Below, piece by piece: positions 4,484 through 42,661 of a DNA stretch of 64,000 nt. The stretch's first letter is position 1, and every line of letters begins with the position of its first letter. Under the pieces are notes generated by a model. It worked only from the letters and a program-made list of their open reading frames with translations. It made no database searches and was not told the origin of the DNA. A program made the translations under genes and the position numbers. Source of the stretch: a bacterium (GTDB lineage: Bacteria; Patescibacteriota; Minisyncoccia; UBA6257; GWB1-50-10); the NCBI GenBank assembly GCA_021815205.1, contig JAKAHD010000003.1:27239-91238 (forward strand). The letters are read 5' to 3'.

Positions 4484-4683
4484 AATATAACTCTATGTGA
4501 AACGAGCAGTAAGGTCAATTGATATGAGAAATTTGCCCCTACAAAGCAGAGGAATTTAAACGCTGATTTATACTGATAAGGCTGATGTGTGCCGATAACG
4601 AAGATACTTCTCCGCCGAAGGCATATCAGCATGAATCAGCTATACTCCCAAACCTAATCATGGGTGGGAGGTAAATCGGCGCC

Positions 4684-5511
4684 TTAGAAGACCTTCCGTT
4701 TCAAGTGAGAGAGCGATGAATGCAATCCTCTACGGATAAAGAGCGGCAAGAACGAATACCAGTATGCGCCGAGATTCAAAAGATATGCAAAAATAAAATT
4801 CGGATATTCCCGTTTATGCCGCTTCAAAAACTCGAGAATCATCTTCCCTTGTGCGCGCTGATAGGTGAATGACTTATTCTGCCCCGCGAGCATATAGACC
4901 GCGAGGTATTCGGGAATATTATAGAGCTTTCCCTTCGTGCCCATCTTGAGCCATAAGTCCCAGTCCTCCGCAAAACGCCACGGCCCGTACCCGCCGACTT
5001 CGAGCGCGATATTCTTCCGGAACATCACCGTCGTGTGGGAAAAAGGATTTGCAAAAAGCGCGTGCCGTCTGATTTCGCCGTCATGTTCGCGCTTCAGATA
5101 CCTGAAAAGTTCCATTCCTTCCCCATTTATCACGATCACGCCACTTCCCACTACCATGAATGCGGGACGCGCATCAAGAAACTCAACTTGTTTTTTAAGC
5201 TTGTCTTTGCTGCACCAATAATCATCATCATCAAGCCGCGCGATATACTCTCCTTGAGCAAACTCCAGTCCTTTGTTCAATGTTTTCGAGATGTCGGGGT
5301 ACAAGTTTTCCGCGTTCGTGATGACCCGGATGCGCGCGTCCTTTTCCTGCCACTCTTTTAATATCTTTGGCGTCTCATCGGTCGAAGCATCGTCCACAAT
5401 AATAAGCTCCCAATCTTGAAATGACTGATCAAGCACGCTCTGAATCGCGCGCCCCAGAAGCTTCGCGCGATTGCAGGTCGGCATGAGAACGCTCACCTTT
5501 ACGTTCGTCAT
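4684..5511 (-). CDS. Family 2 glycosyltransferase
   Basis: VSVLMPTCNRAKLL...DQSFQDWELIIVDDASTD GT2 N-terminal signature; start chosen at MTNVKV (ATGA overlap with upstream gene). Confidence 0.75.
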   Translation of the reverse strand: MTNVKVSVLMPTCNRAKLLGRAIQSVLDQSFQDWELIIVDDASTDETPKILKEWQEKDARIRVITNAENLYPDISKTLNKGLEFAQGEYIARLDDDDYWCSKDKLKKQVEFLDARPAFMVVGSGVIVINGEGMELFRYLKREHDGEIRRHALFANPFSHTTVMFRKNIALEVGGYGPWRFAEDWDLWLKMGTKGKLYNIPEYLAVYMLAGQNKSFTYQRAQGKMILEFLKRHKREYPNFIFAYLLNLGAYWYSFLPLFIRRGLHSSLSHLKRKVF

Positions 5512-6517: not shown

Positions 6518-7822
6518 ATGCAACGCGCCGCAAAATTGTTCGTGCTCTTAGGAATCGGGAGTTTATTTTTTAGACGAGGGATTATAAAACCCTACACGCT
6601 CCAACCCTTTGAATTCTTTATCCTCCTTGCGGGCATCACGCTCGCACTCTTTTTTATTTTTCATAAAGAAAAGTGGGAAGAACTCAAGGCGCTCTCCGGC
6701 TGGTTCCTGTTTTTTCTCGCGATGGCGCTCTTCGCCGCAGCGGGAACGATAAACGGTTACCGCCTTTACGGTCTGGACGAGACGATACAGAAAGCAATCT
6801 TGATTGATTTCTTCTATATCGCAATAGGCGCCCTTGCATTCTTCCTTGTGTTTTACTTTTCGAGAGAAGCGCGTTTCAGAAAACACGCGGTGCTCACATT
6901 CCTCTCTCCGATAATTTTCACTCCGTTCTTGCTCTCTCGCTATCTTGCGGACAAGCTGGGATTCACCGAGGGGAGAACCCACTTCTGGGGTCTCACGACA
7001 AATCCGTCAGAGTTCGCTCTTCTATCGCTCTTTTCTTTAAGTATACTCGTTTTCCTTATACTAAAAGAAAAGAGAACTCTTATAAGAGTGTTCTTGTGGA
7101 TACTCATCGTTTTCTTAGTCGCGCTTATACTTTGGTCGGGATCAAGGACAGCGTGGGCCTCAATAGTTGCAGTGGCATTATTTGTAGGACTCTTTATCTT
7201 CTCAAAACATTATCCCAAAAACTGGAAGTCCGGTATCGGAAGAATTTTTCTGTATATCTTAGTTTCCATACTTACCGTAACCGCTTCATTTTTTATACTC
7301 CCCCATCGGGAGAAAATTATGGTGCTCGACAGGGTTTTTCCTCAAATAACAAACTACGATCCGACATTTTTCCGATTAGACGAGTTGGCGCTGGGAGATG
7401 CCATGTATAGCGTGATAAAAAGTGACGCGATTCAATTCCCCTACCAAAATAGGCAACGCATATGGCCTCAAGCGTTACATCTCGCTTTGAGCCACCCACT
7501 CTTAGGGCTAGGAGTTACTTACGACATATCGTCAAATAAAATAAGAGATGGGGCAGAGGTTGTAGGAGCCCATAATACTTTTCTGGAGGCCTTGCTTACG
7601 GGAGGTGTCGGACTTTTCTTGCTCCTTCTCTTGTTCTACGCAAAAGTATTGCGCCAATTAGAGACTTTAGAAAGGGATTATCAATTCGTTGGGCTCGTTT
7701 CGATGGTAACGAGTATTTTTTTATTTTCTCTTTTTGGAGATTATCTTTTCGCGCTCCCCTGGATGTGGGTCCCTTTTGCGCTCCTCTTTGGGAAGGGCGG
7801 CACAGAGCCCTCAAAGCTCTAG
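6518..7822 (+). CDS. O-antigen ligase/polymerase family membrane protein (Wzy_C-like)
   Basis: About 10 predicted TM helices, GSRTAWASIV motif typical of O-antigen ligase family. Confidence 0.65.
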   Translation: MQRAAKLFVLLGIGSLFFRRGIIKPYTLQPFEFFILLAGITLALFFIFHKEKWEELKALSGWFLFFLAMALFAAAGTINGYRLYGLDETIQKAILIDFFYIAIGALAFFLVFYFSREARFRKHAVLTFLSPIIFTPFLLSRYLADKLGFTEGRTHFWGLTTNPSEFALLSLFSLSILVFLILKEKRTLIRVFLWILIVFLVALILWSGSRTAWASIVAVALFVGLFIFSKHYPKNWKSGIGRIFLYILVSILTVTASFFILPHREKIMVLDRVFPQITNYDPTFFRLDELALGDAMYSVIKSDAIQFPYQNRQRIWPQALHLALSHPLLGLGVTYDISSNKIRDGAEVVGAHNTFLEALLTGGVGLFLLLLLFYAKVLRQLETLERDYQFVGLVSMVTSIFLFSLFGDYLFALPWMWVPFALLFGKGGTEPSKL

Positions 7823-40356: not shown

Positions 40357-40451
40357 ATAAAGTAATACGATAAAAATACAATAGTGACACGGTGGAAATA
40401 CAATCGCACAACTGCATCACTATTGTATCACCACCGTATCACTTTCTCTTG

Positions 40452-40752
40452 TGCCGCGGGGGTGAGTTGAACACCCGACGCCCGCCTCTTCCAAAGCGAC
40501 TGGACTATCTCATCACCCACCGCAACTAGATAAGAGTTGGGTGGGGCTGGGCGCTATTGCAGGATTATTGTTGGGACTCACCTGCTAGTCTCTACACCTT
40601 CCGAAGAACCGTAGCCCTCTTCGGCTTGGCTCGGGATTGTTTCTCATACAACATCGAGAAGTTTTCCCCGAGTTCACCCAGTTTTTAATTTTGCATTACT
40701 GCAAAATGCCCCAAAGATCTAGGGCGGCGCTCTACCGCTGAGCTACCGCGGC
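40452..40752 (-). tRNA. tRNA-Phe (GAA) interrupted by a 229-nt group I intron after U33
   Basis: 5' exon 40721-40752 and 3' exon 40452-40491 join into canonical cloverleaf (acceptor GCCGCGG/CCGCGGC, A73, anticodon loop CU/GAAGA, T GGGTG TTCAACT CACCC). Confidence 0.75.
40492..40720 (-). ncRNA. Group I self-splicing intron in tRNA-Phe anticodon loop
   Basis: Follows exon U; P1 CCCU/GGGG with U-G at splice site; 3' terminal G; R-like GUAGAGACUAG and S-like GAUAGUCC able to form P7; P2 and P8 hairpins. Confidence 0.65.
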
Positions 40753-40793
40753 ATATCCCGCGTTGCTTACTATACCAAAGGAGCTCCTCTCTT

Positions 40794-42020
40794 TCAATTC
40801 TTCATCGCCTCCACGACCCTCGAAACGCCGACCGCATAGGCGGCCATTCTGAAACTTATAGTATGGGATTCCTTGTATGCGAAGATTTCTTCAGATGCCG
40901 AGTTCATCTTCTTTTTTAACTCTTCAAACACTTTTTCCTTGCTCCAGTGCTCGTGATGCATATTCTGATACCACTCAAAATATGAAACACTCACGCCTCC
41001 CGAGTTCGCAAGCACGTCGGGAATAACGGGAATCCCCTTTTTCTCAAGTATCATATCCGCATCGCTCGTCACGGGGCCGTTCGCCATCTCGAGCACATAC
41101 TTCGCCTTGATGGCTTCCGCATTCTCCGAGGTAATCACGTTCTCGGTCGCGGCCGGAATAAACACGTCGACGGGGAGTGTAAGAAGATTGTCGTTTGAAA
41201 TCGCCGTGGTACCGGGCATCCCCTCAAGCGACCCGTGCGTTTTTTTGAACTCGATCGCGGCATCGACGTCGATTCCTTGATCGTTTTTGATCGCATGCTT
41301 CGAATCGGCAATCGCAATCACGCGGTAGCCGGCATCGTGCGCGTAACGCGCGGTATAATACCCGACATTTCCTATCCCCTGCACCGCAACCGTCGTCTGT
41401 TTCGGATCGAGATGTTCCCGCTCCGCGAGGTTCTGAAGCACATAAAACCCCCCAAGCCCCGTTGCCTCGGTTCTCCCCTCGCTGCCATCTTTTTCGAGCG
41501 GCTTTGCCGTAATGACCGCGGGAGCGTATCCGTGCGCGAGTTTTCCGTATTCATCCGCCATCCATCCCATCATCTCCGAGGTCGTGTACATATCAGGAGC
41601 AGGTATATCCTTCGTTGGTCCTATAATCTCATAGATCGCCCTAAGGTACGCACGGGAAAGGCGTTCTAGTTCAGATTCCGAAAGTGTCTTCGTATCAACT
41701 ATCACGCCGCCTTTCCCTCCACCGAACGGGATATCCGCAATCGCGCACTTCCACGTCATCCACATGGAGAGCGCGCGGATCTCCGAAGGGTTCACGAAAG
41801 GACTGAAACGGATGCCTCCCTTATAGGGACCCCGCACATTCGAGTGCTGGGCGCGATACCCCGTGAATAGTTTCACCGATCCGTCATCCATCGTGACGGG
41901 AAAGTGCACCTCGAGAAACTTGTCATGCACCGAGAGGCGCGTAACGATATCGGACGGAAGTTTTAATATCTCCGCGATTTTTTTGAGTTGTGCAACGCTC
42001 GTAGCGTAGGGATCATTCAT
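40794..42020 (-). CDS. gdhA: Glu/Leu/Phe/Val dehydrogenase (glutamate dehydrogenase)
   Basis: GGIRFSP...KCAIADIPFGGGKGG glycine-rich GDH signature; Rossmann GIGNVG. Confidence 0.9.
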   Translation of the reverse strand: MNDPYATSVAQLKKIAEILKLPSDIVTRLSVHDKFLEVHFPVTMDDGSVKLFTGYRAQHSNVRGPYKGGIRFSPFVNPSEIRALSMWMTWKCAIADIPFGGGKGGVIVDTKTLSESELERLSRAYLRAIYEIIGPTKDIPAPDMYTTSEMMGWMADEYGKLAHGYAPAVITAKPLEKDGSEGRTEATGLGGFYVLQNLAEREHLDPKQTTVAVQGIGNVGYYTARYAHDAGYRVIAIADSKHAIKNDQGIDVDAAIEFKKTHGSLEGMPGTTAISNDNLLTLPVDVFIPAATENVITSENAEAIKAKYVLEMANGPVTSDADMILEKKGIPVIPDVLANSGGVSVSYFEWYQNMHHEHWSKEKVFEELKKKMNSASEEIFAYKESHTISFRMAAYAVGVSRVVEAMKN

Positions 42021-42283: not shown

Positions 42284-42354
42284 CCTTTCGTATCGGGATA
42301 TAGTGTAACGGTAGCACGAGTCCTTTGGGAGGATTTAGTCTCGGTTCAAGTCCG
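42284..42354 (+). tRNA. tRNA-Pro (TGG), no encoded CCA
   Basis: Acceptor CGGGATA/TATCCCG, anticodon loop TTTGGGA with G37, T CTCGG TTCAAGT CCGAG, A73. Confidence 0.75.
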
Positions 42355-42661
42355 AGTATCCCGACAAAAATCAATTACCGCACCGCGAGCCGTGCGGTAT
42401 GAAAGAAACCCTTCGACTCGCCTCCGGCTCGCTCAGGGTATTTTTCTCCTGCCATTCATCCTCGCCGCGAGCGGCGAGGTATTCTGATGAAAAATAAAAG
42501 GTGGGCGGGTGAAGGAGCAGGTAGACCGGGTTCCTCGCCTGCTATGCATATGCGTAGCAGGCGGGCAGGGATTCCCGGCTCTCCGACAAATTTTTCTCGC
42601 CGAATAAACCCACACCTTCGCCGCAGGGTATCCTGAGGGTGTACAGTACGCAGGAGATCTC

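Follow-up and report, generated by a model that had tools for sequence, protein, structure and literature searches.

A tRNA-Phe(GAA) gene in two exons

The window, by which we mean the whole stretch of 64,000 nucleotides that was analysed, carries on its minus strand a tRNA-Phe(GAA) gene that is divided in two by 229 nt. The surrounding genes are housekeeping genes, encoding glutamate dehydrogenase (gdh), pterin-4a-carbinolamine dehydratase, cofactor-independent phosphoglycerate mutase, RNase Y, and dTMP kinase. The 5' exon (40721..40752, minus; GCCGCGGUAGCUCAGCGGUAGAGCGCCGCCCU, read from 40752 to 40721) comprises the 5' strand of the acceptor stem, the D arm, the 5' strand of the anticodon stem, C32, and U33, and it terminates in GCCCU. 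The 3' exon (40452..40491, minus; GAAGAGGCGGGCGUCGGGUGUUCAACUCACCCCCGCGGCA, read from 40491 to 40452) provides the anticodon GAA, G37, A38, the 3' strand of the anticodon stem, the variable loop, the T arm, the 3' strand of the acceptor stem, and A73. Joined together, the two exons form a 72-nt cloverleaf, which ARAGORN identified as tRNA-Phe(gaa). When this program was applied to the native DNA with introns allowed, it returned the same tRNA, now interrupted after 'gccct' by an intron of 229 nt that is followed by 'gaaga', which places the insertion point between U33 and G34 (33/34) of the anticodon loop. The first-pass annotation, which had read the minus-strand segments 40721-40752 and 40452-40491 as a split tRNA-Phe(GAA), was therefore exact in coordinates and sequence. 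Both exons also align without gaps with an intron-less gene from a relative (see below).

A few other observations were made on the gene and its surroundings. CCA is not encoded, the sequence found after A73 being CAAG (40449..40452, minus). Position 37, which is an A in E. coli tRNA-Phe, is a G in the tRNA-Phe of the window and is also a pairing partner in P10. A sigma-70-like promoter match, TTGAAA-17-TATAGT with a TG extension (40769..40797, minus), overlaps the stop codon of gdh at a distance of 16 nt upstream from where the tRNA begins; with 1 match found versus 0.6 expected, it is only a weak indication of a promoter. A near-perfect hairpin of about 30 bp (40359..40445, minus; dG -41.6 kcal/mol, z = -6.4) lies in the interval from the 3' end of tRNA-Phe to where the pterin dehydratase gene begins. 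It may represent either a terminator or a repeat, and its match to a miRNA model was at chance level.

Structure and conservation of the intron

The group I covariance-model search that had been proposed as a check of the intron gave a match to Rfam RF00028 (Intron_gpI) of 63.0 bits (E = 1.3e-13), above the gathering score of 50 bits, at 40730..40482 (minus), with model positions 1-253 all matched. The group I intron itself occupies 40492..40720 (minus; AGAUCUUUGGGGC ... GUCGCUUUG). No homing endonuclease or maturase-like ORF was found in its 229 nt, every ORF overlapping it being mechanical and shorter than 46 amino acids. We assigned the helices by hand and checked each pair as a standard pair in the window sequence. 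All core helices form, and there are no broken pairs in the intron's own structure.

The internal guide sequence UCUUUGGGGC (intron nt 4-13; 40708..40717, minus) makes 10 of 10 pairs in the window. Its GGGGC part forms P1 with exon GCCCU (40721..40725), with a U33.G pair at the splice site, and its UCUUU part makes 5 pairs with exon GAAGA (40487..40491) in P10, so that a single 10-nt guide aligns both exon ends. Next to it comes P2, an 8-bp hairpin (AUUUUGCA-GUAA-UGCAAAAU; 40688..40707, minus). P3 is formed by CUGGGUG (40675..40681, minus) and CGCCCAG (40547..40553, minus), and the P4-P5-P6-P6a domain, delineated by the Rfam alignment and by covariation, extends over intron nt 50-125 (40596..40671, minus). 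P7, the guanosine-binding helix, which matches the conserved R/S core of Rfam, is made of the strands G-A-GACUA (40586..40592, minus) and UAGUCC (40502..40507, minus); it consists of GACUA/UAGUC plus a G-C pair across a bulged A, and is in a pseudoknot with P3. Between P7 and the 3' strand of P3 (P3') stands an extra hairpin, GCAGG-UGAGUCCCAACAAUAAU-CCUGC (40559..40585, minus), with a loop of 17 nt; this element is not in the Rfam consensus and was aligned as a 30-nt insertion. P8 is a hairpin of 11 bp with one bulge (40516..40545, minus). The 3' tail, AGUCGCUUUG (40492..40501, minus), ends with the omega-G at 40492. Because only 10 nt extend from the 3' strand of P7 (P7') to the intron end, there is no room for a separate P9.

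The minimum free energy (MFE) fold of the 301-nt precursor (z = -4.58 versus shuffles), which was computed in ignorance of group I introns, contained three tRNA arms (acceptor, D, and T) together with P1, P2, P3, P4, P5, P6a, the extra hairpin, and P8. The R/S segments able to form P7 that were anticipated by the first-pass annotation were recovered by the Rfam alignment and the pair check, the P2 and P8 hairpins also by the MFE fold, and the expected intron-terminal G was found at 40492. The protein-spliced tRNA introns of archaea and eukaryotes are short, are usually inserted at 37/38, and have a bulge-helix-bulge motif and no ribozyme core; an intron of this kind is ruled out here by the insertion at 33/34 and the complete group I core.

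We scanned one genome per species (185,579 species) for AGAGACU, then AnAGUCC, then an intron-final G directly before GAARA, and then a T-loop at tRNA-Phe spacing. The tRNA-Phe 33/34 intron arrangement was found at no fewer than 119 loci, each in a species-representative genome. ARAGORN reported tRNA-Phe(gaa) with an intron in 104 of the 119 listed loci, and, with the 3' splice site fixed before GAARA, 108 listed loci have a 5' exon of 31-34 nt ending in U and an intron ending in G. The genome of the window was not itself among the matches listed; the closest intron among them was in L023 (84% identity), the similarity being confined to the tRNA region.

The guide and the exons covary. Among the matches listed, taken together with the window, the G37 class (59 loci, including the window) has the exons ..CCCU|GAAGA and the guide UCUUYGGGGC, while the A37 class (50 loci) has the exons ..GGACU|GAAAA and the guide UUUUCGGUCC. 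The change of guide coincides exactly with the change of exons, the P10 part of the guide being UUUUC where the exon is GAAAA. The intron has thus co-evolved with two different tRNA-Phe anticodon arms. The splice-site U.G pair, which had been predicted for the window as part of a CCCU/GGGG P1, was indeed present in 109 of 109 of these loci, and at least 9 of the 10 P1 and P10 pairs could be formed with the locus's own junction in 105 of them. On average, these 109 loci made 9.6 such pairs with their own junction versus 7.8 with the junctions of other loci.

Conservation of the fold was assessed on a MAFFT alignment of the 59 G37-class sequences, on which the hand-assigned structure of the window was projected. 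Standard pairs occupied 88.7% of the structure cells, as compared with 74.4% after shuffling and 38-50% when the partners were slid by 1-3 columns, and the covariation score was 0.401 versus 0.150 (shuffled) and at most 0.112 (slid); taking the structure from one member gives it a bias in its favor over the slid versions. None of 500 shuffles matched any of the observed pairing or covariation measures, though these counts are not probabilities since the sequences are related. Changes on both sides were observed in 47 of the 73 pairs, the pair counts being underestimates in the variable P8 tip and the tail, which are poorly aligned. Compensatory changes occurred in P2 (at 8 of 8 pairs), P3 (3 pairs changed on both sides, 99.5% of cells paired), P4 (4 covarying pairs, 100% paired), P5 and P6a (at every pair), and in the stem of the extra hairpin, whose loop is conserved. 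P7 was invariant and 100% paired in the 59 sequences; in P8, the outer pairs covaried and the inner part was variable in length. The element between P7 and P3' exists in two versions, a single hairpin with a conserved GUGAGnCCAACAAUAAU loop in 89 of these 109 loci, including the window, and two small hairpins starting with GACUAUCCCGAAAGGGAGUAC in the other 20.

Hosts, relatives, and published introns

Almost all carriers among the listed matches are Patescibacteria. By record title, the hosts at the listed loci belong to Moran-, Falkow-, Magasanik-, Uhr-, Peregrini-, Gracili-, Berkel-, Doudna-, Yanofsky-, Wolfe-, Harrison-, Jorgensen-, and Vogel-bacteria and to Microgenomat- lineages. Fifteen listed loci are titled Gammaproteobacteria or Bdellovibrionales (L013, L016, L022, L024, L029, L052, L067, L076, L077, L091, L092, L095, L100, L113, and L114). 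The proteins flanking most of these are 55-89% identical to those of CPR-labelled loci, which suggests that most of the 15 titles are probably wrong. A spread beyond CPR was consequently rejected as unsupported, L016, L095, L100, and L113 being excepted from this argument. The named homologues of the gdh gene adjacent to the tRNA of the window are all from Patescibacteria (Dojkabacteria, Shapirobacteria, and Paceibacterota). Together with the relatives of the intron, this gene points to a CPR bacterium as the host.

The gdh protein of the window was found unchanged on the MAG contigs DAIBZG010000015.1 (GCA_027460805.1) and DAIESD010000014.1 (GCA_027346485.1) and in several raw-read assemblies, and the 301-nt precursor was identical in five independent assemblies. 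DNA of this organism is present in the read sets SRR13240876, SRR13241953, and SRR17201078. Three relatives (L126, L128, and L130) encode gdh proteins that are 79-83% identical to that of the window. L130 (GCA_027310235.1) has a tRNA-Phe with a homologous intron of 209 nt (4513..4794), and L128 has a group I intron that is ended by the contig edge (4346..4567). The syntenic relative L126 (GCA_027423885.1) contains a tRNA-Phe(GAA) without intron (6867..6939), which indicates that the intron is polymorphic among close relatives. This intron-less gene could be aligned without gaps with the joined exons of the window; its anticodon stem differs by compensatory changes only and its anticodon loop, CTGAAGA, is identical. 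As this loop is the one predicted to result from splicing, the predicted junction was confirmed. The locus has been rearranged, since in both L126 and L130 a pair of ABC-transporter genes separates gdh from the tRNA, which is encoded on the strand opposite to that in the window.

The classical bacterial tRNA introns of subgroup IC3 are found in cyanobacterial tRNA-Leu(UAA) (34/35) and tRNA-fMet (33/34), Azoarcus tRNA-Ile, and Agrobacterium tRNA-Arg. The window intron resembles them by its location in the anticodon loop, its small size, the absence of an ORF, and its U.G and omega-G boundaries, and it has the same insertion site as the tRNA-fMet intron. The core is nearly alike (CAAUCCyGAGCCAAGCCGAAG...CGGAAGGUGyAGAGACU), with 77% identity to the Anabaena tRNA-Leu intron over aligned positions. 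It differs from them by its host tRNA, by the insert of 27-30 nt after P7, and by the lack of P9, and it does not have the compact core plus P9 that characterizes these introns. The signals on its subgroup appear mixed, since the P4-P6 and P7 sequences look like IC3, while the additional element between P7 and P3' fits what we take to be the IA hallmark in the classification of Michel and Westhof, P7.1/P7.2.

A survey of 95 complete Patescibacteria genomes and 4,934 complete bacterial genomes was published by Nakagawa et al. 2026 (mSystems; PMC13011429). [quoted passage not shown] The survey includes a group I intron at 33/34 of tRNA-Phe(GAA) in Doudnabacteria GCA_016699995.1 (Table 1; sequence in supplementary Table 3). 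With this intron, that of the window shares 88% identity over 190 aligned positions, the host tRNA, the 33/34 site, the P4-P6 and P7 core, and the GUGAGnCCAACAAUAAU hairpin after P7, and the guides follow the same logic (UCUUC/GGGC in GCA_016699995.1, UCUUU/GGGGC in the window). The window intron is longer (229 versus 211 nt), as are its P8 and P5, and it comes from a different genome and lineage, with tRNA exons that differ, including in the anticodon stem. Compared with the self-splicing intron at 35/36 of tRNA-Asn(GUU) from GCA_016700035.1, the identity was 83% over aligned positions, and the P7-P3' insert and the P4-P6, J6-7, and P7 sequences are shared; the Asn intron has a 28-nt tail and a proper P9, whereas the window intron has a 10-nt tail and no P9.

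Judged by its sequence, the window intron is a member of the family of Patescibacterial tRNA introns with an extra P7-P3' hairpin. It has the host tRNA, the site, the homology to the published member, and the Patescibacterial host of the tRNA-Phe 33/34 type; this type being already published, the window intron is a further example of it. The first-pass annotation was thus right in describing a tRNA-Phe split at 33/34 by a group I intron, as borne out by Rfam, ARAGORN, and covariation, but not in regarding such a host as unusual, in view of the published case and of the 119 or more species found here. Its list of established hosts (tRNA-Leu, -fMet, -Ile, and -Arg) corresponds to the knowledge before 2020; according to Williams 2020 (bioRxiv 10.1101/2020.01.27.920355), the known combinations of tRNA and site were raised from 4 to 21. 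What is added here is modest, namely how widespread the family is, an allele without intron, and the tail hairpin described below. From one published case, the arrangement now reaches at least 119 species in many lineages of CPR, and an allele that naturally lacks the intron is available for comparison; this makes a good data set for intron gain, intron loss, and the co-evolution of guide and exons and leaves the known picture unchanged.

Predicted splicing, the 3' tail, and alternative readings

Every feature of a group I intron that can be tested on the sequence was found: the RF00028 score, P1 with its U.G pair, the omega-G with P10, and the P3-P8 and P4-P6 helices with the P3/P7 pseudoknot. 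Very probably, then, a tRNA-Phe(GAA) of a Patescibacteria (CPR) bacterium is split at U33/G34 by an ORF-less group I intron of 229 nt that would follow the standard pathway. The primary transcript would have to be spliced to yield a functional tRNA. P1, with the U.G wobble at the splice site, would form between the guide UCUUUGGGGC and the terminal GCCCU of exon 1, and an external guanosine bound in P7 would attack after U33. The omega-G (40492) would then take the same site while the UCUUU part of the guide holds GAAGA of exon 2 in P10; attack by the 3'-OH of U33 would ligate the exons, giving the anticodon loop CUGAAGA. That the intron would catalyze these steps, and do so independently of proteins, we infer from the family to which it belongs and from the activity that its close relatives show in vitro. 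If this is the only tRNA-Phe gene of the organism, the decoding of all phenylalanine codons would hang on RNA-catalyzed splicing.

The one less-expected detail is a covarying hairpin formed by the tail and the 3' exon. Seven pairs are possible between 40493..40499 of the intron, the last 7 bases before the omega-G, and 40482..40488 of exon 2 (minus strand; tRNA positions 37-43), which leaves the omega-G and GAA in the loop (GGAA), and the Rfam 'P9' was aligned precisely to GCUUU-GGAA-GAGGC, across the 3' splice site. In the G37 class, the longest helix between tail and exon had a mean length of 6.0 bp with the own exon versus 4.3 bp with other exons. When only the variable positions 39-43 were considered, these values were 3.98 and 3.15 bp, a difference matched by 0 of 2000 permutations; with one representative per stem type (n = 22), the observed complementarity was matched by 1 of 5000 permutations, these statistics ignoring phylogeny and the signal being statistical rather than universal. 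The signal was strongest where a separate P9 is lacking: introns in which P7' is followed by 16 nt or fewer gave 4.26 bp, and those with long tails 3.08 bp. In the A37 class, the same comparison of own and other exons gave no signal of complementarity between tail and exon. The helix, which is incompatible with both the anticodon stem and a full P10, might represent a conformer that is regulatory or specific to one step, or a mimic of the anticodon stem. It is conceivable, though we would not count on it, that in the short-tailed tRNA-Phe introns, that of the window included, the hairpin acts as a built-in switch between a splicing-competent and a tRNA-like fold: it would mimic the anticodon stem, thereby freeing the true 5' strand for P1, conceal the 3' splice site along with the omega-G until the first step is over, and replace P9.

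The experimentally validated relatives do have a P9 hairpin, which the window intron, with its 10 nt after P7', lacks, and the efficiency with which such a P9-less form would splice without help is in our opinion the main uncertainty of the splicing explanation. A genuine group I intron that has lost P9 might not be autonomous in vivo and might need help in folding, either from the tRNA body or from a protein of the host (chaperone or tRNA-binding factor). Such a dependence would agree with the shortness of the sequence after P7', with the pairing of the tail with exon 2 in place of an independent P9, and with an MFE fold in which three tRNA arms (acceptor, D, and T) persist next to the intron. 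We nevertheless find it unlikely, because the core helices and the guide are complete and covarying, the intron has no maturase-like ORF, and close Patescibacterial tRNA introns self-splice in vitro (PMC13011429). The chances are much smaller still that the locus is a decaying intron remnant in a tRNA-Phe pseudogene, with an intact tRNA-Phe elsewhere in the genome doing the work. The view of the genome is limited to 64 kb and the close relative L126 lives with an intron-less gene, which would be compatible with this idea; yet no core element is damaged and no pair is broken, five assemblies have an identical sequence, and the arrangement has been maintained with compensatory changes in more than 100 species.

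ARAGORN at its default settings gives an uninterrupted tRNA-Pro(tgg) at 40451..40526 (minus), which, if it were a real tRNA-Pro(UGG) gene, would mean that there is no split gene. We rejected this call and consider the reading based on it to be extremely improbable. At 40451..40526, no match to the Rfam tRNA model was obtained with a cutoff as loose as E <= 0.1. P8, P7', and the tail of the intron, which are conserved as a group I core, make up the 5' half of the supposed gene. Furthermore, a proper tRNA-Pro(TGG) is present at 42294..42364, and similar mis-calls by ARAGORN are described in PMC13011429 and in Williams 2020 ('ghost exons', bioRxiv 10.1101/2020.01.27.920355). The call appears to be assembled from P8, P7', and the tail of the intron and from the genuine 3' exon of tRNA-Phe. 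Default tRNA finders thus miss or mis-call the tRNA-Phe at this locus, and with ARAGORN a false tRNA-Pro is added, so that the genome would seem to be without tRNA-Phe.
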